A stretch of 64,000 nucleotides of DNA from Candidatus Latescibacterota bacterium. GTDB taxonomy: Bacteria > Latescibacterota > UBA2968. Shown here piece after piece: positions 8,132 through 36,290 of this stretch. Made by a program: the position numbers and the translations under genes. Every line of letters begins with the position of its first letter. Positions within the stretch are counted from its first letter, which is position 1. The stretch lies in the NCBI GenBank assembly GCA_965204375.1, contig OZ241986.1:3616001-3680000 (forward strand), written 5' to 3'. The notes beneath the pieces were generated by a model. It had not been told where the DNA came from, did not search any database, and saw only the letters and a program-made list of their open reading frames with translations.

Positions 8132-8203
8132 AGCACAAATCCTTCTGTTGAGATAAGGGCGCGATGACCGTCAAGAGCACCGTTGCCATCTAAAATTTGC
8201 ATA

Positions 8204-9112
8204 TCAGGATTCCTCGCTCAGCGCCTCTATAATCCTGCTCTCTTCACTATCATAATTCAGATCTTCCAGAGTAGTCAGATTCTCTGTCAACTGCTCAGAA
8301 GAGGAGACACCCAACATGATGGTGTGAACCCCGCTATCCTTGACTGCCCACTTGATCAAAGCTCTGGCAACTTGCGCTCTGTTGGCGTAGCCTTTTTCTT
8401 CTGCGATTGCAAACACCTTTGCTTTCTGAAAGAGCACCCGCCCCAAGATGCCTAACGCATGCTTTTCCGCTTTCACAATGGTATCACCAAATTTGGCCTT
8501 TTCGAGGGGGTTGCAGTTTATGAAAGTTGTATCAAAGCAACCCTTGTCATACTGTTTCGCATACGTCTCCGGACCTGAAAATGTATCTGCCGAAGCAAAT
8601 CGGATCAGCCCCTCATCCTTAAGCTTCTGGATGTTGTCCGCAATTTTATCGAGGTAGTCCGGATCGTATTCCAGGGCATCTGCCATGAAGGCAAAGTTGT
8701 AGATGTCTATCACCTCCCGCTGTATGAGCTTCAAAGCTCGGATCGCTTCAGTTCTCAAGAGGCTGTAATCCGCCATCTTCCGGTTGTGCGGGTCATAGGT
8801 ATAGACCATGCCCTCAGGCCGGGTTTGTATAAGGATCTCATCTTTGACATCCACCTCTTTCAGAATCCTGCCCATAGCCTCTTTCTCAGAATCGATTGTC
8901 AGATCGAAGAGGCTGACCCCAGCTTCCAGAGCTGTCTCTACAATCCGCAGTCTGTTCTCTCCGCCAAAGCCCGGGAAAATGTGACCAAGAGTTACTGCCA
9001 GGTCTTTGTTATCCCCAAAGCCAGCGACACGCGAATCAGGATGGAACTCGTGTCCTCCCAGACCGACAACAGATACTTTAATGCCAGTGCGCCCAAGATT
9101 GCGATATTGCAT
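8204..9112 (-). CDS. aldo/keto reductase
   Basis: MQYRNLGRTGIKVSVVGLGG N-terminus and GVSSSEQLTENL C-terminus; start trimmed to MQYR. Confidence 0.8.
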   Translation of the reverse strand: MQYRNLGRTGIKVSVVGLGGHEFHPDSRVAGFGDNKDLAVTLGHIFPGFGGENRLRIVETALEAGVSLFDLTIDSEKEAMGRILKEVDVKDEILIQTRPEGMVYTYDPHNRKMADYSLLRTEAIRALKLIQREVIDIYNFAFMADALEYDPDYLDKIADNIQKLKDEGLIRFASADTFSGPETYAKQYDKGCFDTTFINCNPLEKAKFGDTIVKAEKHALGILGRVLFQKAKVFAIAEEKGYANRAQVARALIKWAVKDSGVHTIMLGVSSSEQLTENLTTLEDLNYDSEESRIIEALSEES

Positions 9113-9281
9113 TTTTATCTCCTTTGCCAACCAGCAAAACCAATTCAAAGTTATCGGCAAGGTACTGGTCTTACAATACTATAATTAAAAATCAACGGGG
9201 AGCATCGCCAAATCGATGTCTCCCCGTCAATTTTATCCCTCTTATCGGGAAACTCTTTTGTCACACTTCCGCATCAGCAGG

Positions 9282-9515
9282 TCAGATTGGTTCAACACGC
9301 TCGTGCCCAATCACCTTTCGGGCATACAGGAGACAGGCCTGAATATCTTTCTGTGTCAGCCAAGGATAGCCTTCAAGCAGCACCTCGGGGGTATCTCCTG
9401 CTGCGAGCATGCCAAGGACCTGTTCAACGGCAAGTCGACGTCCTCGAACAATAGGCTTACCCCCAAAGATCTTCGGGTTGATCGTAATTCGTTCCAAGAG
9501 TTTTTTCTCATCCAT
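9282..9515 (-). CDS. DUF433 family antitoxin-like protein
   Basis: RITINPKIFGGKPIVRGRRLAVEQVL...YPWLTQKDIQACLLYA. Confidence 0.9.
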   Translation of the reverse strand: MDEKKLLERITINPKIFGGKPIVRGRRLAVEQVLGMLAAGDTPEVLLEGYPWLTQKDIQACLLYARKVIGHERVEPI

Positions 9516-9578
9516 TATTCATTTTTCCTCTGTCGTGACGAAATTACTTGAGATGGCAATGATGGCGAAATTTTCGTT

Positions 9579-10481
9579 TTAGTGATCTGAAGCATCTGTA
9601 TTGTTTGGACGATTAGATTGCGCAATAAGACGAAGAATCGGTTTTTTATCCAGTTCATCTTCGGATGAAATTTTCTTCCAATTGCTTTGGACTTCTGCCG
9701 TATCCAGAATTTTAGTCTCCAGAAGATTGGTAATAAGTGCTCCTGTTATCTGATCTTCAAATCCCTTGATTTCGGCCAACGGTACTTCTCCAAAATAAAG
9801 ATCGCATTCTACAAGAAGTGTTACTTTTAACTCTATTTCGAGGAAATCGTTATCTGCTTTGATAAATGCTACCGGTGGTGAAAGGGGAATATCTTTGTGG
9901 ATTCCTGGATCAGTTGGAAATTTCCTTTGTCTCCATAGATCATACACATAGTCTAAAGTAGTTCCTAGTTTCTGTTTCTGATTATCATATAGCACGATCT
10001 TTCCGGGATCTTGTAGAGGCATCCTCATCGTTCCTTGACCGGCAAAGGTCGATAAAAACTGCATGTTTCTAAAATCGGCCAATGCGGGAATGGCAACATA
10101 AGATTGCCAGTCGTGTTTCTCTGAATCTACCAATCGATACAATTCGATATTGGCCTCTGCTGCTCGTTTCTTTGCTGAAGCGCTAAAGCCACTTGCAGAA
10201 ATGATGGCTCCTCGGGTTGCTCGGATATCTTTAAATAGCCCCATAGAGGCTTCAATTGTTTTGATATCAGCAGGTTTTTTGTAGTCTTTGCAGTCAATTG
10301 CGAACAGGGTTTCAAATTGCCCAACTGTTTTTTTTATAACGATATCAATTTCCCTAAGCTGACCAGATTTTACGCCTCGTATCTTGGCATTCTGTTCTAC
10401 TTCGCAATCAGGTGATAGGGTCTTTTGGATTTGGCTACAAACGGATTCAAATCTACGCCATTTTTCAGATTTTTTTGCCAT
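9579..10481 (-). CDS. Mrr_cat-like PD-(D/E)xK restriction endonuclease
   Basis: FE..C..I, REIDIVI, IDCKDY, GAIISASGFSASA in the N-terminal domain. Confidence 0.8.
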   Translation of the reverse strand: MAKKSEKWRRFESVCSQIQKTLSPDCEVEQNAKIRGVKSGQLREIDIVIKKTVGQFETLFAIDCKDYKKPADIKTIEASMGLFKDIRATRGAIISASGFSASAKKRAAEANIELYRLVDSEKHDWQSYVAIPALADFRNMQFLSTFAGQGTMRMPLQDPGKIVLYDNQKQKLGTTLDYVYDLWRQRKFPTDPGIHKDIPLSPPVAFIKADNDFLEIELKVTLLVECDLYFGEVPLAEIKGFEDQITGALITNLLETKILDTAEVQSNWKKISSEDELDKKPILRLIAQSNRPNNTDASDH

Positions 10482-10585
10482 ATCAAGTCCATTTCTATAG
10501 AGACTGAATGAGAGCGTAATCTATACTGTGGTCAGAGGATAGCGATGTTGGTGTTACTTGAATACAGTAAGAGGCACTTTAAAAT

Positions 10586-11713
10586 TCATGAAAACTTAGC
10601 AAGAAACTCCTTCACTTGCTGTTCTTCCCAATCAACATAGCCAATCGGATTATTCCAGAATTTTATCCAAGCCATATTAAGTAATGAATGAATTGGATCT
10701 TTGGTTTCGGGACGGGCAATCCTAGTTCCCATTGCTCCAATCCCTTCAAAAGCCAGAATTGTGATTTTGTCCAGTAGTTCATCTGGATAGCAAATTTGGT
10801 ACTCTGGTTGTGGTTTAAATCCTGTGTGCATAGTGAGACATTTCCAAGTATCATCAATCTGTTGGCCTTCTGAAGCAAACCCGAGGTTATCCAATGCCTT
10901 CAAAATTACTGACATCCTGGCGGAATCCGCAGGATGGGATTCGATGCTTAAATCGAAAGGGTTTCCACCCGCCTTGAAAACTGAATGAAGGAATGTCCAA
11001 GCGTAAGCCGGTCCCAGCGTATATGTGCCAAAAAGGTCGCAGAATAATTCTTCTGCCCAAGACTTGGCCCAATAGTTGCGCCATTTTTCCAAAAAAAAAG
11101 ATAGATACACTGGGCCCTTCCTTCTATCCTCACGTAAAGCTCTATTGTTGATATACTCGTGAATATTTCCAAGTGCCTCAGCCAATTTTTGCTGTAATGG
11201 TTCGATGATTTTGTCATTTTGCGATATAAACAATCTATGTGTGAGTTCGTGGTATAGACAAGGAAGGTGTAGAAGAAAATGCCCTTCAACCAATGGGACG
11301 CATAATAGGTTCAATCCCGTTATTATATAAAAAAAATCTTTTGATAACGTAGATACAACAGGACAACTTCCTTTATATTGGATCTCTCTGCAGATTTCAA
11401 AAAGTAGCTTGTTAAGTCGGTGGTCATCGTCGGCTGCTTTGTTTAGTGCAGCTATTCCTGTTGCCTCTATGCTGTTTAGGTCATCCACACATCTTTGAAA
11501 TCTACGAATGCGTACAGGCTGAATTCGTGGGTCTTTCATTCGCTGGTCATCTCTTAAATGCCGCAACATATCTATGCAATGATCAATAACACTTTCACAA
11601 TTTTGTGTCAGAATTTGATAGTCACGCGGCAGACCCCTAGGGATTTTTCCCTTCAATATCTTCGCTCGTTGCTCCAATTGCGCAATCGTTCCCGCCAGAT
11701 ACTCCTCAATCAT
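10586..11713 (-). CDS. HExxH zinc metallopeptidase-like protein
   Basis: YHELTH, downstream EELFCD and SHPADSAR resemble gluzincin/M48-like motifs; start overlaps upstream stop at 11713. Confidence 0.65.
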   Translation of the reverse strand: MIEEYLAGTIAQLEQRAKILKGKIPRGLPRDYQILTQNCESVIDHCIDMLRHLRDDQRMKDPRIQPVRIRRFQRCVDDLNSIEATGIAALNKAADDDHRLNKLLFEICREIQYKGSCPVVSTLSKDFFYIITGLNLLCVPLVEGHFLLHLPCLYHELTHRLFISQNDKIIEPLQQKLAEALGNIHEYINNRALREDRRKGPVYLSFFLEKWRNYWAKSWAEELFCDLFGTYTLGPAYAWTFLHSVFKAGGNPFDLSIESHPADSARMSVILKALDNLGFASEGQQIDDTWKCLTMHTGFKPQPEYQICYPDELLDKITILAFEGIGAMGTRIARPETKDPIHSLLNMAWIKFWNNPIGYVDWEEQQVKEFLAKFS

Positions 11714-12081
11714 TAATTACCTCTCATCCTGGCGTATGCACTAGATCGCTCTTGTTCCACTGCTTGGGCCAAGGTCTCAAGTTGATCAAATTGGTCTTGG
11801 TTGATCTTATTGTTTAGTAATCGTTCGCCTAGGTCTTGCCACTTTGATTGCCATTTTGTTTGAGTTAGACCTGACTTCTCCTGTAAAATTGCAGATAACA
11901 CTTGTGCTGAGAGATCAAGTTTTTTTCTTTCTCCAATAGATTTCAAAACACAACCAAGTTCTTTGACTTTCTCATCCTGATCTATATTACCCGTACTTAG
12001 AGTTACAATAACCTCATCAACAAGCTGTGCAAATTTCCTCATTCTCTCATACATTCCTGAGTGTAATCCTGTATTACTCAT
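11713..12081 (-). CDS. small helical hypothetical protein in the Argonaute operon
   Basis: 122 aa, good RBS (GGAGGATGG), 11 bp from pAgo stop, coupled to the next gene. Confidence 0.75.
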   Translation of the reverse strand: MSNTGLHSGMYERMRKFAQLVDEVIVTLSTGNIDQDEKVKELGCVLKSIGERKKLDLSAQVLSAILQEKSGLTQTKWQSKWQDLGERLLNNKINQDQFDQLETLAQAVEQERSSAYARMRGN

Positions 12082-12092
12082 TTTCCATCCTC

Positions 12093-14456
12093 CTAAATAT
12101 CCAGTGAAAAATCAATTGCTTCTTCGTCATACTCGCTGGCATCTTCACCCAGCCGACGATCTGTTAGTTTGATTGTAATCGGGTCCCGTGTGCAGTCTTC
12201 AGGCCGAGTCCAAGTGAGAGCAGTAAGATAATATACATCCCTTAAGCAGTCTTCAAACGGCATATCTCCGTCAACATATCTGATATGCAACGGTCTTGTT
12301 GTACCTGGATGGAAAAATGCTTTTCCAGTCGTACATAAGTACGCATCTCTATCATCAATGATGTGGTAGCAGCCAACTTGAGGATTTTTAACTTCAAAAT
12401 CATCCCACTTTTTCGTAACATCAAAAAATCTGATGGGGACCGGAGATGTCTTTGAAATTTCCAAAAATGTTACTGTTGAGGATTTGGGTAGGGTACCCTT
12501 TTCCTTAAGCAGGATCAATGCTTCTTGGATACCGTCGATTTCAGATTGAAACAATCTTCCATCTCGATGAATAACAATCCGCTCAATAGGCTTGTCCGCT
12601 ACTTCGGCTTCCTTACTTATTAGTTTGAATAAGAAGGTTTTGACCTGCGGTTTTCCCAGCTTTTCCCTATGTCTGGAGCGTGATACTTCCGTCCTAATCC
12701 TTGCTCCCATGTTTCCGACGAGAGTGAAACCCGCCGTACTATGTTTTGCGTCGATTCCAATGGTCAAATCTGCTTCGAGTGGTGTAGCTAAGACAAATGG
12801 CCAATTTTCATTAGTTAGAAGAATTTTATTGAGTACTACACCGCGGATATAGCCTCTCAATTTGCCAGCCTTCTTAGGATTTGGTTCATACACATCAATA
12901 CCATTCTTTGATATAAGATCATAACATTCTTGGCCTACGGCAGAGTGATTGACAGCGACCCGCAAATCGTAATCGCGTTCCAAGCGATTTATTATCATCG
13001 CACCTAATTGATCGTGTTCGCGGAATTTTTGATCCCTAGTGTGATGTAACATCACGAGCATATGTCCGCTCAGTTGTCCTTCTTCTTCGATCGCAGTAAG
13101 TATAGATTTGCCTTGTGCGACGAATGTTCTTGGTCCACCATCGGGATAGGTGATGATCTTTGGTGCGTAGGGTGGCAAGACTTGATTATCCGATTTACCA
13201 AGACAATCAGCCACACAATTCTGAATATCTGTGGTATATTTTTCTCCCCAACTTTTTTCTACGGATTCTGGTAGGACAAGATACTGTTGTCCAAGGGGAG
13301 CCTTGTCATAGAATCCAACTGATTGATCAGCTAATAGATCTAATCGAACACGTCCAATATTATCAAGGCTGACTTGCTGAGCTTGTGGTGTTCCACTCAC
13401 AGATACAATGTGACCTTCACCAAACTCATAATCGGGAATTTGAAACATTGCTTGCGGGATAGTGATCTGTGTCGAAGACAATCTGACAGGAACATCACCG
13501 AATTTCAAGCTTGATAGGTATTTTGCTGTAAATTTGTGAATCTTTGATCGTCTGACTTTCGGATGTGGCACAACCAGTTTGTGGTTATGTCGAACTGCAG
13601 AATGTCTGTTATCTAAAATCGCATAACATAGTCCGGTCGGAACTGCCCTGGGTTCGCCTTTATTGGTTCTATATATTGCAACAGATGAATCGTGCAGGAG
13701 GTTAGTAACCTCCTTTGGCAAAGGTTGTGGCGCATGTTTAAGGATATATTCTCTGAGATTATAATTTTTCCCGTCCTTTACAATTGGATACGTAGAAATA
13801 TCGAGATCGTGTAACTCATCTAATTTTACATCATACCAGCTACGTCCAAAATGGTAAACAAACCGGCTACCAGCATATTTCCGGAATTTGTCTCTTGACA
13901 GGTGCAATGGAAGTGAAGTGTTACTGACGAATTTTCCTCTAAAATCGACACACAAACCTATACCGCCATTTGGTGTTACAATTGCCCTAAATGCAAATCC
14001 CTGAAAAAAATCAATGTCTCCGATACGGCGAGTTGGGTTTCTTTCATAAAAAGGAGTACCACTGCCCAATTGCCATAGGGCCCTATTTTTCCAAACTTCA
14101 CTTTGCAAAGCAAAATTGAGGAACCGGAGACAGATATCATCATTGTTCACAGATCTTTCTGTAAAATCTATTGGTAATACACCTACTTTTTCAAATATCA
14201 CAACAGTACGAACGAGGTCGTAGGGAGATGGGGGTTCAGGACCACGTTCGGATAACACAAGATGGGGAATACCTTCAATTTCAATAATTATTGCGGAAGT
14301 TCGCAATTGAAAGCTGATCTGCCTGACAATCTGTGCCTTATTTTGAAAGTATTCGTCTTGATTTCTATCTAAATTTAGAATCTTATACAAACGATATCGA
14401 GCAGAAAACTCTGCTATGTTTTCAATGTTAAAGATGTTTGTTTCAAGGCCTTTCAT
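12093..14456 (-). CDS. ago: long prokaryotic Argonaute (PIWI domain, putative DEDD tetrad)
   Basis: 787 aa; PIWI motifs IGIDAKH, REKL, IVIHRDGR, EISK, GTTRPL, DVYYLTALTW, RDPITIKLTD. Confidence 0.9.
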   Translation of the reverse strand: MKGLETNIFNIENIAEFSARYRLYKILNLDRNQDEYFQNKAQIVRQISFQLRTSAIIIEIEGIPHLVLSERGPEPPSPYDLVRTVVIFEKVGVLPIDFTERSVNNDDICLRFLNFALQSEVWKNRALWQLGSGTPFYERNPTRRIGDIDFFQGFAFRAIVTPNGGIGLCVDFRGKFVSNTSLPLHLSRDKFRKYAGSRFVYHFGRSWYDVKLDELHDLDISTYPIVKDGKNYNLREYILKHAPQPLPKEVTNLLHDSSVAIYRTNKGEPRAVPTGLCYAILDNRHSAVRHNHKLVVPHPKVRRSKIHKFTAKYLSSLKFGDVPVRLSSTQITIPQAMFQIPDYEFGEGHIVSVSGTPQAQQVSLDNIGRVRLDLLADQSVGFYDKAPLGQQYLVLPESVEKSWGEKYTTDIQNCVADCLGKSDNQVLPPYAPKIITYPDGGPRTFVAQGKSILTAIEEEGQLSGHMLVMLHHTRDQKFREHDQLGAMIINRLERDYDLRVAVNHSAVGQECYDLISKNGIDVYEPNPKKAGKLRGYIRGVVLNKILLTNENWPFVLATPLEADLTIGIDAKHSTAGFTLVGNMGARIRTEVSRSRHREKLGKPQVKTFLFKLISKEAEVADKPIERIVIHRDGRLFQSEIDGIQEALILLKEKGTLPKSSTVTFLEISKTSPVPIRFFDVTKKWDDFEVKNPQVGCYHIIDDRDAYLCTTGKAFFHPGTTRPLHIRYVDGDMPFEDCLRDVYYLTALTWTRPEDCTRDPITIKLTDRRLGEDASEYDEEAIDFSLDI

Positions 14457-15378
14457 AGTTATCCTCCCAACATATCATTTTAAATTTGCACCTTTGACAA
14501 TTACCAGGGTAGATAGTGACGTCAAAATCTTCAGGTTTGAGATCCGAAGGCTTGTTATTATCGACCGCGGAGACCATATCATTAATACTTTTCCCGATAT
14601 AATCTTCTAACTTGTGAATATCTTCTTCTGTGAGTTGATACTCTCTCAGAGTGTTTGTCAGTAATTGCACTTCTGCTAGTTCGATATCGGTTTCAGCCCA
14701 CCTATCAAGAGAGGGAAAATATGAGTGAGGTTTGCATCTTTTGAGTGCTAGAGCATAGACTCCCAACTGCAACCAAGCTTCTTGTAGGGCAAATGTATGC
14801 ACTTTCCAATCGACAATTAGCGGGGCACGATTATTGTAGAAGGCCAGTACGTCAGGAATAGCTCGAACTGTATTCTCGAAGAAAGGGAACTGTAGAATCC
14901 TCTGTGCAAATAGTCCGTCTGCTTGAGCTAACTTTTGTAGCAGGACTTCCTGACTATATAGATTCTCAATGGCCTGCAAGACTTCAATTCTGGCTTTATC
15001 TAATTGATCTGTTGGGATTGAACCATCATAGACTATCGCTTGAAATGCCACAAAATCTGGATCTTTGAGGTTAGTAGTAGGAGAAAGTAGATCATTTTCC
15101 AACCCAAATTTTAACTGTTTTTCGAGTTGATGTACCGCTTCGTTTTGTAGTTGATCCTTTGAAGGCACACGCTTATATCTTAGCCCTTTAAGTAGGGATT
15201 CTGATAAGACTTCATCAACTATTAACCCTCTCCAAGCACTGACCGAAACTAATTTTGACAAGCGATAAGCTAAATGCCGGTCAGGAGACTTAGCTCTTGC
15301 ATTTGCAAATGTCTTCTGAAAGAACCATTTTCTTGGACAACCTCGGAAATTATAGTTGTCCGAAACTGACCATATCAT
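14443..15378 (-). CDS. Cas4/AddB-like PD-(D/E)xK nuclease with predicted Fe-S cluster
   Basis: N-terminal CPRKW, IPD..., IVDWK, QLGVY and C-terminal CQRCKFKMIC (1+3 Cys pattern). Confidence 0.85.
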   Translation of the reverse strand: MIWSVSDNYNFRGCPRKWFFQKTFANARAKSPDRHLAYRLSKLVSVSAWRGLIVDEVLSESLLKGLRYKRVPSKDQLQNEAVHQLEKQLKFGLENDLLSPTTNLKDPDFVAFQAIVYDGSIPTDQLDKARIEVLQAIENLYSQEVLLQKLAQADGLFAQRILQFPFFENTVRAIPDVLAFYNNRAPLIVDWKVHTFALQEAWLQLGVYALALKRCKPHSYFPSLDRWAETDIELAEVQLLTNTLREYQLTEEDIHKLEDYIGKSINDMVSAVDNNKPSDLKPEDFDVTIYPGNCQRCKFKMICWEDNYERP

Positions 15379-15731
15379 TATTCCTTCCTCCGATTTTTTT
15401 TTAATCGTAAAAAGTCCAAATACTCAATCAGCGCTTCCTGTTCTTCTTCACTTGTTGCTCCGAGTCTTGCAACGAATGCTGTTTCCTTATTTTGTTCTTG
15501 ATGATCGGGCATTGGGTATCCTGCCATTGTCATTATCGAAGCATATGGCACCTGATACAATTCGCTCAACTTAAACAGAATTTTGGGAGAAGGAGTACGG
15601 ATTTTGCCACTTTCTAATTGGCTAAGGTAAGCATTGGAAATTTCGGTTTCTTTTTCAACTGCTCTGAGAGTGTAGTTTTTCGATTGTCTCATAGACTTCA
15701 GGTGTGCTCCGAGTTCGTTTAAGTCAGGCAT
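15378..15731 (-). CDS. XRE-family HTH transcriptional regulator
   Basis: LKSMRQSKNYTLRAVEKETEISNAYLSQLESGKIRTPS; RBS AGGAGAG before ATG 15731. Confidence 0.92.
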   Translation of the reverse strand: MPDLNELGAHLKSMRQSKNYTLRAVEKETEISNAYLSQLESGKIRTPSPKILFKLSELYQVPYASIMTMAGYPMPDHQEQNKETAFVARLGATSEEEQEALIEYLDFLRLKKNRRKE

Positions 15732-15770
15732 GTTTTCTCTCCTGCTGATCGTTTGATTCAACAATTCTTT

Positions 15771-15808
15771 TGCTAATTATATCAAGCATTGCTAAATTTG
15801 TCAAGCAT
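15771..15808 (-). promoter_or_regulatory. consensus sigma70 promoter overlapped by two TGCT-N10-AGCA operators
   Basis: Minus strand reads TTGACA (15804-15799), 17 bp spacer, TATAAT (15781-15776); palindromes at 15771-15788 and 15790-15807. Confidence 0.85.
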
Positions 15809-16097
15809 TTCAGATAAAAAATTTTCGATTCCTAAAATCATTTAAACTCTAACTTCATATTTTACATACTATTTGACTGAGGTATATTAGTTGGAAAAAA
15901 GGATACTGTTGCGAGAATTTTGAGTCTTGATGCCTTTTTGTTTGACATTCGACTTCGGTTCATATACATTTCAAATCCAATGGGGACTTGGTTTCCTGCT
16001 CTCCGGGAAAATTAGAGGATACATCTCCGGATTTTGTAGAAATGGTCTTAAAAAAAGCATTCCAGAAATAGACTAAAGACAATAAGTTAAATTGGGT

Positions 16098-16174
16098 GGG
16101 CGATTAGCTCAGGTGGTTAGAGTGCTTGCTTGACATGCAAGAGGTCACTGGTTCAAGTCCAGTATCGCCCACCA
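16098..16174 (+). tRNA. tRNA-Val(GAC)
   Basis: 77-nt cloverleaf: GGGCGAT/ATCGCCC acceptor stem, CTTGC-TTGACAT-GCAAG anticodon arm, GGTTCAAGTCC T arm, encoded CCA. Confidence 0.97.
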
Positions 16175-16182
16175 TTAAAAAC

Positions 16183-16216
16183 AATGGGTTACGCAAATTG
16201 ATGCGTAACCCATTTT
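16183..16216 (+). terminator. intrinsic terminator after tRNA-Val
   Basis: 13-bp stem AATGGGTTACGCA/TGCGTAACCCATT followed by T residues. Confidence 0.8.
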
Positions 16217-16260
16217 CCTTTGATGCCCATCTGGATGCAGTCTTTCAAGGAATTCTGAAC

Positions 16261-16896
16261 ATGAAACGAATCGGTATTCTGGCCTACGGCTCTCTAATAG
16301 ACAATCCGGGTCCAGAACTGGGACCGAACACGGTTGCAAAAATCAAAGGTGTCAATACGCCATTCAGGGTTGAATTCGCCCGGAAGAGCCGAAGCCGCAA
16401 TTATGCACCCACTTTAGTTCCGGTTGCTGAGAGTGGTGCTTCCGTTAAAGGCGTTATACTCATATTGAGAGACGGCATATCTGAAACAGAAGCTAAAAAT
16501 ATGCTCTGGCGCCGGGAAGTGAACCGTTTTGACACTCGGAAAATTTACCAACCCTATGCAAACCCCGGTGACAATAAGGTGTATGTGGAAGCGCTGGAAC
16601 ATTTCAAGGGTATCGATGTGGTTTATTACGTCCGAATTGCCTCTAATATCCAACCCTTGACACCAGCACGCCTGGCAAAGCTGGCTATTCAAAGCGTCAG
16701 CTTAAAAAAGAAAAACCAGGGGCGAGATGGCATTAGCTACCTGAACAATGCAAAAGCAAACGGTATTCAAACGCCCCTCATGTCCGCATACGAACTGGAG
16801 ATTCTACAGCGGATGAACGCAAAAAATCTCGCAGAAGCCTTGTCCTCGCAAATCAACCTGTTGAAAGAAAATGCTGGATCATCTCACGCTCCGTAG
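16261..16896 (+). CDS. gamma-glutamylcyclotransferase/ChaC-like protein
   Basis: MKRIGILAYGSLI N-terminal motif, PTLVP, RE; ORF-track start lies inside the tRNA so it was trimmed to ATG 16261. Confidence 0.7.
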   Translation: MKRIGILAYGSLIDNPGPELGPNTVAKIKGVNTPFRVEFARKSRSRNYAPTLVPVAESGASVKGVILILRDGISETEAKNMLWRREVNRFDTRKIYQPYANPGDNKVYVEALEHFKGIDVVYYVRIASNIQPLTPARLAKLAIQSVSLKKKNQGRDGISYLNNAKANGIQTPLMSAYELEILQRMNAKNLAEALSSQINLLKENAGSSHAP

Positions 16897-16897
16897 G

Positions 16898-17716
16898 TTA
16901 ATCCCCTTCAGAAAGTATTTCAGCAATTTTATCCAGATATGCTTTCAGGGACAAACCGTGACTTCTTGCCAGAATCCCCAGCGTATCCACTTTTGTCCGT
17001 TCTCCCTTTTCGATTCTGCGCACATGGCGTTCCGAAAGGCCCTGAATATCGGCTTGCTTAAGCCCACACTGTTTTCGAAATGCGGCAACAGCCTCTCCGA
17101 ACCGAATGTCAGACATCAATCTTTCCCGATCCTTTTGCTCCCGCCACATATCATCTTTCAGGTAGCGAACAGCATCCAGGTCGATGTGTACATCAGCCTC
17201 AGGCCAGTGAATATAACTGCCTTCGCTGGAGATGGTAAATGAAGAACGCTGTTTTTCTGGTATGCTCTCGAATGCGAGCATTTCATCAAACCCAACTCTG
17301 AACAAGGTATGATCACAGGCCACGACAAAAAGCTCATCATCAATAACCTGTGCAGTGGCAATTAGCTGATCCGGACATCCAAGACTCCAGGCCGTAAGCA
17401 CGCGCTTTGGCACATCCTTATCTGAATGCACAAGAATGTTTCGGGTCATTCTCAGTTTAGCTGCATAAAGCATCTGCGGTAAAAACTGAGCATTGTGGTC
17501 TTCCCGGACAAAAAGGGTTCGAAGATGGTTTCGGTGATTGGCAGCACGCACAAATTCAGTAACAACAGGCAGATCGGGAACAGAAGTGAGCACAAAAATA
17601 TCCCGAGAATTTATCCTTCCCAAGTCTGGCTTCCGAAAAACCCTGAAAGAACGCGGAATGATGTCATCGCTGAATGGGTCTTGAGCCCAGACGGTCATAT
17701 TAGCAGTCTTTGACAT
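16898..17716 (-). CDS. DUF2442 + XRE HTH antitoxin-like protein
   Basis: FTISSEGSYIHWPEADVHID (DUF2442-like) and C-terminal HTH (RKQCGLKQADIQGLSERHVRRIEKGE); RBS AAGGAG before ATG 17716. Confidence 0.75.
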   Translation of the reverse strand: MSKTANMTVWAQDPFSDDIIPRSFRVFRKPDLGRINSRDIFVLTSVPDLPVVTEFVRAANHRNHLRTLFVREDHNAQFLPQMLYAAKLRMTRNILVHSDKDVPKRVLTAWSLGCPDQLIATAQVIDDELFVVACDHTLFRVGFDEMLAFESIPEKQRSSFTISSEGSYIHWPEADVHIDLDAVRYLKDDMWREQKDRERLMSDIRFGEAVAAFRKQCGLKQADIQGLSERHVRRIEKGERTKVDTLGILARSHGLSLKAYLDKIAEILSEGD

Positions 17717-17718
17717 AC

Positions 17719-17997
17719 TTAGCTCCTTGTATCCACTTTGGCTTCCCACTCGGCATAAAGCGCGTCTCGATATTGAAGCACCAGATTTAAAAGCTCCCGG
17801 CACTCTTTGCCCGAAGGACCCGATCCAGAGGGAGGAAACTTCACATTGAAAACCAAATTGCTGCGTTTACACGCACGAAAAAAGACGCGGATCTCCCATT
17901 TGTCTGGTTTGCGGGCGTGAAAATGAGGCGGTTCGTGATCCGAGGAATTGAACCATAGGTCCACACCCGCCATATGAAAACAATCCAATTTGCCCAA
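17719..17997 (-). CDS. DUF4160 family protein (toxin-like)
   Basis: FNSSDHEPPHFHA motif; probable TTG start after AGGAG; paired with the DUF2442 gene. Confidence 0.8.
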   Translation of the reverse strand: MGKLDCFHMAGVDLWFNSSDHEPPHFHARKPDKWEIRVFFRACKRSNLVFNVKFPPSGSGPSGKECRELLNLVLQYRDALYAEWEAKVDTRS

Positions 17998-24917: not shown

Positions 24918-25523
24918 ATGTCTAAAAATTCACCTGAAAATCAAGTCCTGGAACTGGCACAGCAAGGACTCTTGAGAGTTTGCGATCTGACTTCCCGGGG
25001 CCTTCATCCCGAATATCTGCGACGGCTGTATCAGAAAGGACTGGTGCGACGGGAGGGAAGAGGCCTGTACATTGCAGCCAATGCCGAGATTTCGGTACAC
25101 TATGGTCTGGCGCAAGTAGCAAAGCGCATTCCTCACGGAGTGATTTGTCTGCTGTCAGCTTTGAGCTTTCACGAAATTGGCACACAGCTACCGCACCAGG
25201 TCTGGATAGCCATTGACCGCAGAGCAGCGAAGCCAAAGATGCAATTTCCTCCTCTGAGAGTGATGCGGTTCTCCGGTACTGCACTGACTGAAGGGGTCGA
25301 AACGTATCGGATTGAGGGCGTTCCCGTTCAGATTTTTAACCCCGCCAAAACAGTTGCAGACTGCTTCAAATACCGCAACAAAATCGGTCTGGACGTCGCG
25401 CTTGAAGCATTGAAAGAATGCATTCGCGACCGTCGCACCACAATGGACGACCTCTGGCATTTCGCACAAATCTGTCGAATGACCAACGTGATGCGGCCCT
25501 ATATGGAAGCTATGGTGGCATGA
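24918..25523 (+). CDS. abiEi: type IV TA antitoxin, AbiEi family
   Basis: wHTH GRGLY, GVICLLSALSFHEIGTQLP, KTVADCFKYRNKIGLDVALEAL; TTGACA-16-TATACT promoter just upstream. Confidence 0.88.
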   Translation: MSKNSPENQVLELAQQGLLRVCDLTSRGLHPEYLRRLYQKGLVRREGRGLYIAANAEISVHYGLAQVAKRIPHGVICLLSALSFHEIGTQLPHQVWIAIDRRAAKPKMQFPPLRVMRFSGTALTEGVETYRIEGVPVQIFNPAKTVADCFKYRNKIGLDVALEALKECIRDRRTTMDDLWHFAQICRMTNVMRPYMEAMVA

Positions 25524-25624
25524 AAAGAGCGCGTCCCAAAAACCTGCCTGTATCCATCCATCAGCGACTTTTAAACCTGAGCAAAGAAAAAAGGGAAGAG
25601 CCTACGGAATCTCGAACTTTCTGA
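25520..25624 (+). pseudogene. truncated AbiEii toxin remnant
   Basis: ATGA overlap with abiEi; MKRARPKNLPVSIHQRLLNLSKE matches the AbiEii N-terminus and stops after 34 codons. Confidence 0.7.
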
Positions 25625-25645
25625 GAACTGTGAAAAAATTCAAGA

Positions 25646-25674
25646 TTGACATATACTGAACATATGTATATTAT
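25646..25674 (+). promoter_or_regulatory. sigma70-like promoter for the methyltransferase operon
   Basis: TTGACA-17bp-TATTAT; contains ATATAC...GTATAT inverted repeat. Confidence 0.55.
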
Positions 25675-25828
25675 ACCAGGAAACTATGATAGCACAATAG
25701 CTTCGAGGTCACTATTGTCTTGCGAGTAGCTTATTCTTATCTTGTGGCTGTAAGTTTTTTGAAAATAATTCGTTGGAGAAAATACTGGAGGCGGTTTAGA
25801 ATACTTAAGTAGCCGCGGAGACTATGCT

Positions 25829-27127
25829 ATGGGGAAAAGGGGTAAGAACAAGGACAACAAAGATCCAAATCTTTTTATTGATCTGTTTGCAGGTTGCGGG
25901 GGGTTGTCTCTTGGACTCATGCTCGCTGGCTGGAAAGGGCTATTTGCAATAGAAGGAAATAGGGATGCATTTGAAACACTTAGCCATAACCTGATTAATG
26001 GCAACCGTGACATGTGTTATGAGTGGCCATATTGGTTACCTAAAAAAGCCTACGAGATAAATGCCTTCATAAAGGAGTATAGAAGTCAAATCTCCAAGTT
26101 GCGGAACAAGGTCTTACTCATTGCCGGTGGTCCTCCTTGTCAGGGGTTTTCCTTATATGGTAAACGAAACAAAACAGATCCTAGAAATTGGTTGTTTCGG
26201 CATTATCTCGATATAATAAAATTGGTAAAACCTTCCTTTATTCTTTTGGAAAACGTGAGAGGTATAGATGTAGAATTCGGAAAAAAAAGACGGCAGACCA
26301 CAAATAAAAACGGTGTTGGACGACCACCAAAGTCGTTTTCCAAACTTATTAAGGAATGTCTTGAAGGTGATTACGAAATCCATGCGGGACTCATCAAGGC
26401 AGTAGACTTCGGTGTACCGCAGTTGCGTCCACGCTATATTATGCTGGGAATTGATAGAAATCTCTTGAAGGGTAACAATACACAAATTGATCCATTTGAA
26501 CTGATTGAAGATTATAGGCTATCGTTTCTCAATGAAAAAAAACTTCCGATAGACAGACCTGTCAATGTAAAAGAAGCTATTTCAGATCTGGAGACACACG
26601 GTAAGGCATTAATCGACTGCGTTGATTCCCCCAGATTTAAGCAGATTGATTATGATTCTCCCCAAACATATTATCAAGAGTTACTGCACGGTAATCTTAA
26701 CGGCGTCGCACCAAATAGTCTCAGATTACCTAAGCATAGAGATAAAACTGTCAAGCGATTTTCAACAATACTCAACACCTGTAGACGTGGAGTTCAGCTA
26801 TCCCAGGAGGATAGAGAGCGTCTCGGTATCAAAAAGCAACGAATCGTTGCCCTGAACGAAAAACGACCCTCCCATACAATTACCACATTACCGGATGATA
26901 TTCTGCATTACTCCGAACCCAGGATTTTGACCGTAAGAGAGTCCGCACGCTTACAATCCTTTCCCGATTGGTTTGCCTTTAAAGGAAACTACACCACAGG
27001 AGGTCATAGGCGTGTTAAGGATTGTCCACGCTATACTCAGGTAGGAAATGCTGTGCCTCCGTTCATTGCCGAAATATTGGGCAAAGTTGTGAGTGAAATG
27101 ACTGAACGACTGTTACCGACCAATTGA
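25829..27127 (+). CDS. DNA (cytosine-5) methyltransferase
   Basis: DLFAGCGG, GGPPCQGFS, ENV, PQLRPR, RESARLQSFPD, QVGNAVPP. Confidence 0.96.
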   Translation: MGKRGKNKDNKDPNLFIDLFAGCGGLSLGLMLAGWKGLFAIEGNRDAFETLSHNLINGNRDMCYEWPYWLPKKAYEINAFIKEYRSQISKLRNKVLLIAGGPPCQGFSLYGKRNKTDPRNWLFRHYLDIIKLVKPSFILLENVRGIDVEFGKKRRQTTNKNGVGRPPKSFSKLIKECLEGDYEIHAGLIKAVDFGVPQLRPRYIMLGIDRNLLKGNNTQIDPFELIEDYRLSFLNEKKLPIDRPVNVKEAISDLETHGKALIDCVDSPRFKQIDYDSPQTYYQELLHGNLNGVAPNSLRLPKHRDKTVKRFSTILNTCRRGVQLSQEDRERLGIKKQRIVALNEKRPSHTITTLPDDILHYSEPRILTVRESARLQSFPDWFAFKGNYTTGGHRRVKDCPRYTQVGNAVPPFIAEILGKVVSEMTERLLPTN

Positions 27128-29271
27128 TGATTGGTATTTCTTCTGAAAGAATTCTCATGCCTAAAAACAAGAACCCCTGGATTGAAAAATTACTGTCTTG
27201 GCACGGACACGATCAAGGTGGGGTAAGTGTACCCTTTAATGACCGTGGGGGAAATCCTCTTCGAGACGAACATGGTGATCCCGAAGTTATCGAAACAAAT
27301 CTAATAAAAAGGCTGAGAGATTTAGCACGAGATATCGCGGAAGGGACAGAAGCACCCAGATGGATTTTCCTCGTGGGTGGCCCGGGCAACGGGAAATCTG
27401 AGGCAGTTCAGGAATTTCTTTATACCCTCGATAGGGAACTTCAATGTGATGGAAAACTGGTTGGGATTCTTAAACAAAAATTCTCTCCTGCTCCACTTGT
27501 CCCATGGAATGTGGAAGTCAACAGTGATGATTCTGGCCTACCCGCTCTCTTCAAAGAAAAAATACAAAGATTGATTGTTGTGCAAGATGCATCCGCAAGT
27601 AACAATCCTCGTTCTGACGCAGCTAATGAGATAGTTAATAAAATTGCAGATTTGGCGACGCATCCCCCATCTCTGCTCCTACCTGTATTCATTTGTTGTA
27701 TCAATAGGGGACTACTAGCCAGAGCTCTCACAGTTGCTCACAAAGTCTGGGGTTCAGGCAATGAAGTGGTTAGGATCATTGAGGCCTTGATCGAAGCTAC
27801 TGCGATGAGACAAGAAACCTTATCAGAAAACAAAGATAGACCTCCATGTTGGCCCTTAAATCTGGACATATCTGAGGTAGAAAAACAGGTATGCTGTTGG
27901 CCGCTTGACGTCGAAAGCTTGCTTCTCCCAGAGAATCATGGTGGATCCAGCATTTCGCCCGTGGAACAAATAATAGAAAAAGCGATTGTGGAGAATGAAT
28001 GGGAAGTATCTGGACGCTGTGCAGATTGCGATAGCGCAGATCTGTGCCCATTTCGACAAAATGCAATCTGGTTAAGGAATGAGGAAACAAGAGACAATCT
28101 ACTTTCAATTCTGCGCCGTGGAGAATTGGCTATTTCTCAGCGATGGAATTTTCGTGACACATTTTCCCTAATTGCGGGAACTCTTGTTGGGAATTGGAAT
28201 GATTTCGCTGAATTTGATCATCCCTGCGAATGGGTTCACGAAAAGGTAGTAAGTATTTGTCAGCAGGTGCAAACACGGCCTGAAAAGGCGGTTGCTCCTA
28301 CGATTGCACTTGTTTCGCGTTTGTATCCCAATGCTATGTTTCCAGTACCTATGTTCTTGAACTTACAAGAAAAAAATCTCACAGAAAAAATAACTCTTGA
28401 GGTAAAAAACAGTATTACCTTACTGGAAAAACAGCCTCAGACCCACATTCAAAACTTACTCAGGCATTCCATATCACCGAGGTTAGATCCTGCATTTCTT
28501 TCTCCTCTCAAAGAGGATCATCCAATTAGAAAACTTGAGAATAGTTATAGCCAATCGGTAGAAATCGGAAACCAGAGCTGGGATAGCTGTTCGGGTATGA
28601 GCAAGGTAGAGAGTATTTTTTTTACTTTACTAAAAAGTGCAGAGGATGAATGGGACCCACTCAGTCGTGAATCAGCCCAGATTCTAGAAGTCCTCAGATT
28701 TTTAGGGGTTGTAGGCGTTTCCTTAGCGAAACGATCCGTGGGGGCAAGATTAGGTTATCATACAAATGAGGATTACCTATTAGACTACGAGGCAGTTATT
28801 CGCGATGAAGATGCTCTTTACGATTTGACTCAAGAGTTGAGGTCGTTACTTGGCGCAGGAGGATTCCATTTTAACGCATTAGAGAGCTTTGGACAACCAC
28901 GGTCGGAAGATGATTGGTTAATTGCACTCCGGGGAGATACCATGCCAATCGCCCCTATAACACCTGCTCCAATGGGAGGGCGCGATCTACCGGCGCATGA
29001 TTTTCCATTCATTAAAATAGTGAATTATTCTATACCACTTACATTCGACTTGTATATGGCACTAAGACTCAGACAGGACGGATGTGAAAGTAGCAGTTTA
29101 CCGGCAAGTGTTCGTGCTGCAATTGACCGTATTCGGCACCTACATGCCGGGCAACTTTGTCGTGACCAAGAGGCTTTTGTTAACGGGAAAGTCTTTTACG
29201 AAATAAAAGACTATGGAAAAATAGATTTACCCCGAGAAGGGGAATCTCCCAGACTAAGAGAAATGAGATAG
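27124..29271 (+). CDS. P-loop NTPase with Cys cluster, DndF/DptF-like
   Basis: Walker A GGPGNGKS, VVQDAS, CINRGLL, CADC....CPF..N, WNFRD; overlaps the MTase stop. Confidence 0.6.
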   Translation: MMIGISSERILMPKNKNPWIEKLLSWHGHDQGGVSVPFNDRGGNPLRDEHGDPEVIETNLIKRLRDLARDIAEGTEAPRWIFLVGGPGNGKSEAVQEFLYTLDRELQCDGKLVGILKQKFSPAPLVPWNVEVNSDDSGLPALFKEKIQRLIVVQDASASNNPRSDAANEIVNKIADLATHPPSLLLPVFICCINRGLLARALTVAHKVWGSGNEVVRIIEALIEATAMRQETLSENKDRPPCWPLNLDISEVEKQVCCWPLDVESLLLPENHGGSSISPVEQIIEKAIVENEWEVSGRCADCDSADLCPFRQNAIWLRNEETRDNLLSILRRGELAISQRWNFRDTFSLIAGTLVGNWNDFAEFDHPCEWVHEKVVSICQQVQTRPEKAVAPTIALVSRLYPNAMFPVPMFLNLQEKNLTEKITLEVKNSITLLEKQPQTHIQNLLRHSISPRLDPAFLSPLKEDHPIRKLENSYSQSVEIGNQSWDSCSGMSKVESIFFTLLKSAEDEWDPLSRESAQILEVLRFLGVVGVSLAKRSVGARLGYHTNEDYLLDYEAVIRDEDALYDLTQELRSLLGAGGFHFNALESFGQPRSEDDWLIALRGDTMPIAPITPAPMGGRDLPAHDFPFIKIVNYSIPLTFDLYMALRLRQDGCESSSLPASVRAAIDRIRHLHAGQLCRDQEAFVNGKVFYEIKDYGKIDLPREGESPRLREMR

Positions 29272-29275
29272 GAAA

Positions 29276-30814
29276 ATGCCACTCCAAGATTTTTATGACT
29301 TGCTGTGGACAAAAGAACATGGTGCCTACGATAAGTCGATTCTTCGTCCGGTTGCACCGGAGTATACGACTGGTGAAGTACTCCTAGGAGCGACTTACCG
29401 AAAACTTCTCCTGGGACAACAAGAAGCAAACGTAGACTTGAATGAGATCGATACGCTTCCTGATAAGTTAGCACCTCAACAGCAGGCTTGGAAGTCCATT
29501 CTTAAGTCGAGAGAAGGATTGGCAAGTCCATCCTTATCTGGTCAGAGAAGTACTCCTCCACCGCAGTTGATGCCACTGGTGCCAGAAATCGCGCGTTATG
29601 GATGTGTATTAGGTGGAAGACCAAGAAGTAGATGGGACCCAGGTAATCTTTTGTTATCTACATTAGGATCAGGTCTAGGTCCTAATGGGATTGAATCCAT
29701 TATAGAACGCTTGAGGGAGGTCTTGGCAATTACCGATCAAGAAGATGTGTTTGCAAAATTTGTAGAAAACTCACTGGATGAAATCGCAGATGGACCTAAA
29801 GATGATCTGCTGTCACTTGATAATTTAGAAGCACTGGCCTGGAGAGCTTCCAACGACCTAATACGGACACCGGCTGAACAATTTTCCGAGGATCTTAATA
29901 GTATAATAGGGTTGAAAGAGCATTTGACACGTCGGCAGTGGACCGTGTTACTTGAAGCATTACTAAGAATTGGACTTGCAACTCACATGCTGTGGCTATG
30001 TCGTGCAAACAAGGTTGTATGGCACATGGTCCTGAAAGTTCTCGGCTCTGATACCCCTGCGCCTGATGCATTGGCTATAGAAAAGCAATGTTGGGAAGGA
30101 CATGACAATATTGATCCCTTGTTGGAACTCGGTCGTGACGGTATACCTTTTATAAAGAAAAGACTCCAAGAATTTATCCAGGCAAGGTTAGGATTAAATC
30201 TTTTGCTACATGCATTGGAAGATGCTGACCATAGTTGGCCAAATCCCATTGGAGTTTCCCCAGATAAAAACCCTCAACCTGCTCCTGAATTGATAGCAGC
30301 ATTCTTGAGCCATGTTGAGAGCCACAAATCGTCCATACAACAGATCGTTCAACAAACGCTCCACGAACCGTCCCTACGTAACGCAGCACAAACAATCGCC
30401 GATTCTAATCCTCGGCTCCTCGGCTCTCAGTCGGGTCCAACTAAGAATCTATACGAGTTCTTACGCTATAGCCTTAGGCAATTACAACCTATGGAGTCAG
30501 AGATGAGCTCGTATGATCAGTCTTACGTTTTATATAAAAAAAATAGAAGGCAGAACAATTCACCCTGGCCCGTCCAACCAGGCCCTGCAGCATTGATCAT
30601 GCTTGTCCACTCTTGCTGCAAATCATTAGGAAGAGTGCCTGCAAGCATTGATTACTTTAGAAATTATTTGGCAAATTATGGAATCTTGGCACCGGCCGGA
30701 GAATTGCAGGGTGGCCAGACAGGTAGAGACCTAGAGCGACTTGGGCTTGTCGTTGATAGCCCAGATGCAGGGGGAGGCCGTCTGCTGGTTTATCCTTTTA
30801 AGAGATCAGCATAA
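29276..30814 (+). CDS. hypothetical protein, DndG/DptG-like
   Basis: 512 aa; C-terminal LERLGLVVDSPDAGGG resembles the DptG E..G....SDSG terminus as I recall it; sits between F-like and H-like genes. Confidence 0.5.
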   Translation: MPLQDFYDLLWTKEHGAYDKSILRPVAPEYTTGEVLLGATYRKLLLGQQEANVDLNEIDTLPDKLAPQQQAWKSILKSREGLASPSLSGQRSTPPPQLMPLVPEIARYGCVLGGRPRSRWDPGNLLLSTLGSGLGPNGIESIIERLREVLAITDQEDVFAKFVENSLDEIADGPKDDLLSLDNLEALAWRASNDLIRTPAEQFSEDLNSIIGLKEHLTRRQWTVLLEALLRIGLATHMLWLCRANKVVWHMVLKVLGSDTPAPDALAIEKQCWEGHDNIDPLLELGRDGIPFIKKRLQEFIQARLGLNLLLHALEDADHSWPNPIGVSPDKNPQPAPELIAAFLSHVESHKSSIQQIVQQTLHEPSLRNAAQTIADSNPRLLGSQSGPTKNLYEFLRYSLRQLQPMESEMSSYDQSYVLYKKNRRQNNSPWPVQPGPAALIMLVHSCCKSLGRVPASIDYFRNYLANYGILAPAGELQGGQTGRDLERLGLVVDSPDAGGGRLLVYPFKRSA

Positions 30815-30849
30815 GAACACATGTTTGTAGATTCTTCGAGGTTAGACTA

Positions 30850-36072: not shown

Positions 36073-36164
36073 ACATAATGTTTTAAAAAAAGTGCGAAAT
36101 ATTGTCAAAATTGTGATGGTACTGAGCACAGGCTTGAGTATAGCTGACTGGAGCAATCTGGCGC

Positions 36165-36290
36165 GGTTAGAGTGCTTGCTTGACATGCAAGAGGTCACTG
36201 GTTCAAGCCCAGTATCGCCCACCATTAAAAACAATGGGTTACGCAAATTTATGCGTAACCCATTTTCCTTTGATGCCCATCTGGATGCAG
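36165..36290 (+). repeat. second copy of tRNA-Val 3' portion, terminator and downstream sequence (att-like)
   Basis: Lacks the tRNA 5' end; identical to 16115-16240 except 2 nt. Confidence 0.92.

Follow-up and report, generated by a model that had tools for sequence, protein, structure and literature searches.

Which partners does a prokaryotic Argonaute (pAgo) work with when its gene stands in a row with genes of no named family? This question is raised by six head-to-tail open reading frames (ORFs) on the minus strand, at 9579-15764, of the window analyzed here, a 64-kb stretch of contig OZ241986.1 of a Candidatus Latescibacterota bacterium. They encode an XRE-family regulator, a Cas4-family nuclease, a long pAgo, two proteins without a named family (p122 and p375, called after their lengths in amino acids), the second of which carries an HExxH motif, and an Mrr-like protein (Table 1). 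A first-pass annotation had described all six as one extended Argonaute system. Its ORF coordinates and junctions were reproduced, and for four of the six genes its labels (XRE, Cas4-like, pAgo and Mrr-like) agree with Pfam (HTH_3 3.5e-13, PDDEXK_1 4.4e-11, Piwi 1e-8, Mrr_cat 1.2e-11) and PADLOC (pAgo_II 1.8e-274, Aga_Cas4-like_Nuc 1.3e-102). The XRE and nuclease genes overlap by 1 nucleotide (nt) at 15378, nuclease and pAgo by 14 nt at 14443-14456, and p122 and p375 by 1 nt at 11713; pAgo and p122 are separated by 11 nt, p375 and the Mrr-like gene by 104 nt. Judged by sequence comparison, the locus is a horizontally mobile Argonaute defence cassette of five genes, not six. An Argonaute operon that includes a putative protease and a small protein predicted to plug it suggests that the Argonaute works with a switchable protease.

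The five-gene unit was recognized by its recurrence. A search seeded with the pAgo covered 168 genomes of the window's phylum and gave matches in 12, the window's own included. All seven full-length pAgo relatives found there lie in the order XRE, nuclease, pAgo, p122, p375, with one copy split by insertions. In addition, a p375 profile was scanned against 185,579 species genomes; 148 relatives were confirmed and the best 80 loci were retained, with records from Planctomycetota, Acidobacteriota, Cyanobacteria, Chloroflexota, Bacteroidota, Proteobacteria, Verrucomicrobiota, Nitrospirales, and others. Homologues are also present in cultured strains, such as those of Calothrix and Pedobacter. Genes were called over 87 loci with hidden Markov models (HMMs) built from the first matches. 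All five genes were present in the same order and on the same strand in 73 of the 87 (71 of 85 unique loci). Of the remaining 14, six are cut by a contig end and eight show internal losses. The p122 gene was detected by its HMM in 86 of the 87 loci, immediately upstream of p375 in every case. A five-gene order shared by 73 of 87 related loci goes well past what chance would produce, and the neighbourhood survey upholds the earlier suggestion that the 122-amino-acid and HExxH proteins belong to a larger pAgo system. No further conserved gene was found around the 87 loci, where upstream families reach at most six loci and downstream families at most four. A search with the single pAgo protein against genome contigs gave 51 pattern stretches, none of which was confirmed.

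The same layout was identified at a larger evolutionary distance. In a second clade, whose p375 is about 20% identical and whose small partner has 150 amino acids (p150 and p375′), the order XRE, nuclease, pAgo, small protein, p375 was found in locus L135. A metagenome scan with this clade yielded four loci, and all three with enough flank show this layout. Among 401 cyanobacterial genomes, a pAgo match was obtained in three, each with nuclease, pAgo, p122-like and p375-like genes in this order. Two loci of a distant cyanobacterial pAgo clade differ in the first gene: the one ahead of the nuclease encodes 128 amino acids in L142 (11239-11625) and 148 in L143 (5251-5697), and these proteins match neither Pfam nor the XRE HMM. 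A sigma-70 factor, which is reported ahead of the nuclease in the PnyAgo group (main text of PMC9360449), was not seen at these two loci.

The downstream border of the unit can be placed by comparison with close relatives. Contigs with a nearly identical cassette were found in public sequencing runs of other studies. In run X6, the pieces over 10561-15783, which comprise the cassette and its promoter, show 12 differences in 4469 nt (0.27%). The Mrr-like gene and the region downstream of it (9168-10531) differ at 61 of 1138 positions (5.4%), and 21 differences in 440 nt (4.8%) were counted in the right flank (16392-16831). The divergence jumps about 20-fold between 10561 and 10531, inside the gap between p375 and the Mrr-like gene; the five genes and their promoter therefore act like a recently shared unit and the Mrr-like gene is part of the surroundings. 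An Mrr-like homologue was found beside none of the seven same-phylum cassettes and none of the 87 related ones. In this point the six-gene description was not sustained.

The best match of the pAgo among Protein Data Bank (PDB) entries is PliAgo (7R8K/7R8F), with an E-value of 1.3e-135 over residues 4-784 (phmmer). The tetrad D569/E598/D632/D766 aligns gap-free to D563/E592/D626/D762 of PliAgo in the numbering used in the main text of PMC9360449, so the completeness of the catalytic tetrad proposed before agrees with a published enzyme in all four acidic residues. Furthermore, K571 corresponds to the group-specific K565 and K763 to K759. In the MID domain, H504 and Y536 correspond to H498 and Y530, which that text gives as the two residues that never vary in the unusual pocket, and the PliAgo positions R467 and S501 are occupied by H472 and V507; the MID and lysine correspondences were counted by hand on the pAgo/7R8K alignment. 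The MID pocket of the group is described as non-canonical (RHSY), with H and Y absolutely conserved, and PliAgo is presented as the founding member of pAgos cutting RNA with DNA guides, having a disordered C-terminus which tolerates a GFP fusion (main text of PMC9360449). Homology shows the pAgo of the window to be an enzyme of the PliAgo group whose DEDD tetrad is intact, and on this account it most likely cleaves complementary RNA by means of DNA guides.

The nuclease gene precedes the pAgo gene. In an alignment of 28 nuclease sequences, C14, D176, D190-W-K192, C294, C297, and C303 are invariant; these residues form a D-DxK triad and a set of four cysteines, one N-terminal and three C-terminal. 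The single protein had no match in the PDB at E≤1e-3. The nearest solved structures to the profile of the 28 sequences are CtACE1 (9IAB, E 0.11) and MaACE1 (9IAC, E 0.2), and an identity with ACE1 of the APACE1 system was rejected, as these two were reached only at the given values. With 311 amino acids the nuclease is close to the ACE2 mean of 313, length alone being compared; the length of ACE2 results from an insertion of 28-41 amino acids relative to ACE1 (text of PMC12094033). APACE1 resembles the present locus in the translational coupling of a catalytically active long-A pAgo to a Cas4-family nuclease upstream of it, which has a D-DxK triad and a cluster of four cysteines (text of PMC12094033). 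Unlike here, APACE1 is a two-gene system acting on DNA, and its CtAgo (9IAD) is absent from the PDB matches of the present pAgo at E≤1e-3. The words HTH and peptidase do not occur in the text of that paper, nor do XRE, peptidase or protease in the text of the 2018 pAgo census. Of the pairing of a long pAgo with a Cas4-family nuclease proposed in the first-pass annotation, the presence and coupling of both genes stands, whereas the system is not APACE1 and its pAgo is of the PliAgo group.

The HExxH noted earlier in the fifth protein was found as H155-E156-L-T-H159. Together with E222-x-x-C-D226 and H260-P-x4-R266 it makes up three motifs, all of which are kept in 98 of 99 p375 ORFs of at least 340 amino acids. 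In 36 sequences, H155, E156, H159, E222, C225, D226, H260, and R266 do not vary, and the histidines, the glutamates, D226, and R266 among them are also kept in the 20%-identical p375 of the second clade. An exhaustive profile search of 1.84 billion proteins returned 1556 relatives at E≤1e-3. Of these, 725 remain at a threshold of E≤1e-10 and 325 at E≤1e-30; a word-indexed search returned 228. Fused CHAT domains aside, the relatives belong to no Pfam family. The AlphaFold2 model (pLDDT 94, pTM 0.91) opens with a helical N-terminal domain of 110 residues, continues with three strands and the HExxH helix, and ends in a helical body. In a greedy hhalign alignment, HExxH, ExxCD, and HPxxxxR are collinear with HExxH, ExxAD, and HPxxxxR of M48, which we take to be the motifs that define this family. 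In the ESM Atlas, the nearest named clusters are M48 and U49 with a score of 0.78, which serves as a lead only.

Membership of p375 in M48 was nevertheless rejected: there was no PF01435 match even at E≤10 (0 of 30 members) and no significant profile-profile match. The same 30 members showed no recurrent Pfam family even at E≤10. An identity with U49 (Lit) was rejected at an hhalign P of 0.13 against four sequences, and p375 is not an M78 ImmA/IrrE protein, as there was no Pfam match. The best hit of the p375 profile among PDB sequences, YmcA/RicA at E 0.051 in the N-terminal helices, was taken as chance. With M48 (HtpX, BepA, Ste24) and U49 (Lit), p375 shares HExxH, E-x-x-(A/C)-D and H-P-x4-R in the same order; it differs in being cytoplasmic, in its helical N-terminal domain, in its dedicated partner, and in the missing Pfam and fold matches. 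Three of eight long p375 forms (P0122, P0097, P0136) carry a C-terminal CHAT protease domain, that of P0136 below the cut-off, and one 609-amino-acid form is located in a pAgo operon (L039). Taken together, p375 is probably a gluzincin-type zinc metallopeptidase that has M48-like motifs and represents a new family.

No family above the cut-off was found for p122 in Pfam, NCBIfam or PADLOC, and a word-indexed search gave a single match. This is an effect of the index and not the sign of an orphan, because the HMM finds the protein in nearly all loci. It evolves fast, with a conserved N-terminus (MSxxGLxSGxY) and a conserved C-terminal helix; M1 is kept in 75 of 75 sequences, S2 in 71, L6 in 64, and Y11 in 71. 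Complex prediction supports the binding of p122 to p375: the interface score ipSAE was 0.88, 0.86, and 0.88 in three runs and 0.00 for the best of three controls, with a contact agreement of at least 85% and a partner pLDDT of at least 79. To our knowledge there is no similar complex, so that a score from a remembered structure is unlikely.

In the model, residues 1-13 of p122, its most conserved part, contact residues 124-138 (the strands) and 152, 155-156, and 159 (the HExxH helix) of p375 as well as 221-222 at E222 and 259-260 at H260. The helices of p122 pack against helix 58-84 of p375, in its helical N-terminal domain. In zincins, a bound substrate or pseudosubstrate inhibitor runs along the edge strand and over the HExxH helix. 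The p122 protein is therefore a predicted partner of p375, either as pseudosubstrate or as substrate. From the model, a cut would be expected near S8-G9-M10 of p122, unless the tail stays intact and acts as an inhibitor. Gene fusions were also identified: p122 is joined to the N-terminus of p375 in P0026 and to the C-terminus of pAgo in L021, L042, and L049.

The first gene of the cassette likely starts at the ATG at 15731, which is preceded by the Shine-Dalgarno-like site GGAGAG; the longer ORF call begins at a TTG at 15764, and the alignments with homologues begin at residues 2-7 of the ATG form. The protein matches HTH_3 with 49.8 bits (cut-off 23, Pfam) and the PADLOC models HTH_VI (1.3e-13) and capH (6e-8), and phmmer detected it in 78 of 87 loci. 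The only sigma-70 match with 12 of 12 positions in 9000-16300 is located 45 nt upstream of the XRE start codon. It coincides with two operators: TGCTTGACAAATTTAGCA (15790-15807) holds the -35 element TTGACA and TGCTTGATATAATTAGCA (15771-15788) holds the TG-extended -10 element TATAAT. The pattern TGCTTG-N6-TTAGCA occurs twice in the window, and both matches are these operators. Between -200 and +60 of the XRE start, 76 of 88 loci have at least one site with up to two substitutions, compared with one of 88 random 260-nt pieces. Two or more sites occur in 32 of the 76 site-bearing loci, which are spread across phyla. From this we infer that XRE binds the operator pair and autorepresses the single strong promoter of the operon.

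The cassette is not kept in full everywhere. Strong p375 matches were obtained in 14 genomes of the window's phylum, and six of these genomes are without a full pAgo. One of them has the order XRE, p122, p375 (L134), two retain residues 1-91 of the nuclease between XRE and p122 (L131, L132), and three contain short nuclease::pAgo remnants (L129, L130, L133). Losses of pAgo and nuclease were also found in other phyla (L028, L069, L074, L082). In the 12 pAgo-less loci checked, p122 and p375 are of full length and all three p375 motifs are present. IS-element insertions of about 1.3-1.7 kb interrupt nuclease and/or pAgo in L019, L020 (identical to L059) and L135; the insertion in L135 encodes a DDE_Tnp_1_4 transposase. 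Carrying pAgo and nuclease seems to come at a cost, and both genes are often lost, with XRE, p122, and p375 being retained.

Pairs of p150 and p375′ without pAgo were observed at two loci. In L136 (8876-13966) the pair has a STAND (NACHT/NB-ARC) NTPase and an Mrr_cat-nSTAND3 ORF as neighbours, in L137 (4430-9847) a 1186-amino-acid Eco57I/N6_Mtase protein. Such pairs may be remnants, or they may form a free-standing module within defence islands. The idea that they serve other defence systems was weakened, as all three metagenome loci of this clade that have enough flank again contain XRE, nuclease, and pAgo.

For the complete cassette the following course can be proposed. XRE would repress the single strong promoter through the two 18-bp operators over -35 and -10. 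By analogy with ACE1, the Cas4-family nuclease may supply or trim small DNA guides, with which the pAgo would cut complementary invader RNA. The p122 protein would keep p375 latent, its N-terminal tail being placed in the HExxH cleft and its helices clamping the N-terminal domain of p375, as in the model. Because natural fusions join p122 to the pAgo C-terminus as well as to the p375 N-terminus, p122 may also tether the protease to the Argonaute, and pAgo activity or target binding would shift the plug and fire the protease. The likeliest outputs would be cleavage of the XRE repressor, leading to a feed-forward de-repression of the cassette, or cleavage of host proteins, leading to growth arrest. 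That the locus is an Argonaute system with a latent, pseudosubstrate-gated metalloprotease coupled to pAgo through p122 is the preferred reading, to which we give slightly less than an even chance. A wider version, doubtful at present and still a serious candidate, would make PliAgo-type pAgos the sensor arm of a protease-signalling immunity and not slicers acting alone; RNA recognition by guide-loaded pAgo would be relayed by the tethered adaptor p122 to a metalloprotease of a new family, which would cut XRE or host proteins. Such an arrangement would be the Argonaute counterpart of Craspase, and XRE, p122, and p375 would form a portable switch outliving its sensor; this part is likewise put forward tentatively.

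Several points weigh against the proposed coupling. At least nine independent lineages lost pAgo and nuclease and kept p122 and p375, most of them also XRE. The module can thus persist without Argonaute, which fits an autonomous module equally well. The complex of p122 and p375 is a model on custom alignments, for which the calibration of the ipSAE mark (58 of 80 solved complexes attain it, as do 2 of 110 mismatched pairs) holds only roughly. A contact between pAgo and p122 is suggested by the three gene fusions. A p122-like tail motif was found in none of 82 XRE and none of 80 p375 sequences; in the nuclease it occurs in 1 of 70 and in pAgo in 6 of 67, never at a conserved position. For p375, no family was found in Pfam, NCBIfam or PADLOC, and Foldseek searches of the whole model and of its core (111-375) against the PDB, and against BFVD, gave no match at E≤1e-3. 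The hhalign comparison with 23 M48 sequences was not significant (P 0.0058, probability 6.3%), with unrelated controls giving worse values of P 0.05-0.39. The assignment as a peptidase is derived from the motifs, and RNA targeting is derived from the homology of about 1e-135 to PliAgo.

These points give room to other explanations. XRE, p122, and p375 may constitute a self-contained switch of repressor, protease, and inhibitor that controls the intervening genes as cargo, responds to a cellular signal such as DNA damage and has no physical coupling to the Argonaute, in the manner of ImmR-ImmA, DdrO-IrrE, CapH-CapP or BlaI-BlaR1. Precedents exist for XRE repressors being cut by metalloproteases. 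The capH match of XRE, the conserved operators covering the promoter and the retention of XRE, p122, and p375 after pAgo loss (L028, L074, L075/L095, L082, L129, L130, L133, L134) all fit this switch. Nevertheless, it appears unlikely: p375 is not an ImmA/IrrE protein of M78, the genes of XRE and p375 stand at opposite ends of the operon, none of the 82 XRE sequences carries the cleft-binding motif of p122, and two loci have p122 and p375 with a first gene other than XRE (L142, L143). The fusions of pAgo with p122 argue in addition for a physical link to the Argonaute. A related explanation, which we also consider improbable, leaves out XRE. According to this, p122 and p375 would be an autonomous toxin-antitoxin-like or abortive-infection pair, consisting of a protease toxin and a plug antitoxin, that stabilizes the cassette or provides a defence of its own and only travels with Argonaute genes. 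The tight protease-inhibitor complex predicted here would suit such a pair, as would the repeated independent loss of pAgo and nuclease with an intact pair and the occurrence of the divergent p150/p375′ beside a STAND NTPase or an Eco57I-type methylase. It is opposed by the same fusions, by the pAgo gene adjoining the pair in 73 of 81 loci with enough flank, and by the identical architecture in the second clade (L135, L139-L141). Moreover, a pAgo of the group was found without the pair in none of 11 full-length pAgo-seeded loci, which is a small sample.

Two further explanations concern the parts of the locus. The p375 protein may be a non-catalytic scaffold or pseudopeptidase, which assembles or stabilizes the pAgo complex together with p122. 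It is mostly helical, no zincin fold was recovered by Foldseek, and a 43%-identical relative (P0070) is labelled 'Thiaminas...' in one source; Pfam searches of 30 p375 members gave neither a thiaminase nor a TenA family. Pseudoenzymes usually lose their catalytic residues, whereas those of p375 are invariant in 36 sequences, are kept in the 20%-identical clade and line the modelled groove that holds the p122 tail, so that a scaffold is very unlikely. Finally, the six-gene system with the Mrr-like nuclease as additional effector has a few features on its side: this gene follows on the same strand at a short distance and within the same low-GC stretch, no terminator-like site was found in the gap, and one contig of run X4 bridges the gene and the cassette. 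Against the lack of an Mrr-like homologue beside any related cassette and the step in divergence exactly in this gap, we regard it as barely credible. Among these explanations, the Argonaute-coupled latent protease is the one preferred here.

Parts of the cassette have been seen before. With the PliAgo-group 'D-R' operons the locus shares the full-length pAgo homology, the DEDD tetrad, the equivalents of K565 and K759 and the histidine and tyrosine of the MID pocket. These operons are stated to have 'the same gene composition', a PD-(D/E)XK nuclease and a helix-turn-helix (HTH) regulator being named in 2022 (main text of PMC9360449), and both precede pAgo here, too. That main text neither names nor discusses the small protein and the HExxH protein; Figure 1b of the paper or the supplements may draw them. 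In literature searches, figures and supplements aside, no paper was found that links the PliAgo group or any long-A pAgo to a protease. New here are the pairing of protease and plug, the fusions, the operator pair and the recurrent loss of pAgo.

Likenesses beyond Argonautes exist as well. ImmR/ImmA, DdrO/IrrE, CapH/CapP, and BlaI/BlaR1 also combine a repressor and an HExxH protease in one defence or mobile unit. The present locus differs from pairs of the CapH/CapP type in that p375 does not belong to M78 (COG2856), lies four genes from XRE and has p122 as a third protein which plugs the protease in the model. The type III-E CRISPR Craspase consists of gRAMP with the TPR-CHAT protease and Csx30. 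It works in a like manner only: a guided RNA-targeting effector is joined to a protease whose substrate is encoded adjacently, and on the p375 side the CHAT domain of some members adds to the likeness. In contrast, the effector here is an Argonaute and not a Cas protein, the protease is a putative metalloprotease and not caspase-like, the parts are non-homologous and the coupling is proposed.

The natural role of DNA-guided RNA-cleaving pAgos has been called an open question (main text of PMC9360449). These pAgos have so far been studied as single proteins for biotechnology; in the loci analyzed here they are almost never alone. They are accompanied by a Cas4-family nuclease, by a repressor of their own whose operator is conserved, and by an unnamed pair resembling a gated zinc protease. 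Two uncharacterized families are thereby added to the defence-associated genes, p375 alone with its 1556 relatives. If the Argonaute does fire the protease, this would be the first protease-coupled Argonaute pathway in the literature searched.

Table 1. Features of the Argonaute cassette and its downstream neighbour in the 64-kb window.
Feature	Coordinates	Strand	Basis
Promoter with two tandem 18-bp operators	15771..15807	-	sigma-70 match and site pattern
XRE-family HTH regulator, 117 amino acids, first operon gene	15378..15731	-	Pfam HTH_3
Cas4-family PD-(D/E)XK nuclease, 311 amino acids	14443..15378	-	PADLOC Aga_Cas4-like_Nuc
Long-A pAgo, PliAgo group, 787 amino acids	12093..14456	-	PADLOC pAgo_II, PliAgo homology
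p122, small helical protein, 122 amino acids, no named family	11713..12081	-	HMM conservation
p375, predicted zinc metallopeptidase, 375 amino acids, unnamed family	10586..11713	-	motifs
Mrr-like gene, 300 amino acids, Mrr_cat N-terminal domain; neighbour, not part of the cassette	9579..10481	-	Pfam 1.2e-11

The G+C content is 0.37-0.43 across 9-16 kb of the window and 0.53-0.60 farther out, and the cassette stretch adjoins an intact tRNA-Val gene. On the left side, contigs of runs X4 and X6 join 8144 to 9168 with 53 other letters between, and the aldo/keto-reductase-like ORF at 8204-9160 is therefore absent or replaced there.

A second tRNA-Val predicted by ARAGORN comprises only the 3′ part of the gene (about 57 nt) and about 56 nt of a downstream hairpin. 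It repeats the intact tRNA-Val locus (16098-16230 and 36151-36283) with two mismatches over about 117 nt. The two copies look like att-like direct repeats bounding an insertion of about 20 kb to the right of the tRNA gene. No integrase was seen among the ORFs of at least 140 amino acids in 24.8-38.5 kb. Inside this insertion, at 24918-36072, a second defence-like cluster was observed, which encodes an AbiEi regulator, a C-5 cytosine methylase, a 715-amino-acid AAA_16 ATPase, a 512-amino-acid protein without a family and a 1740-amino-acid protein ending in an AAA+/RuvB-like module. Directly to the right of each tRNA-Val repeat copy lies a DUF2442-containing ORF on the minus strand (16898-17803 and 38121-38705), the first of which also contains an HTH_3-like stretch.

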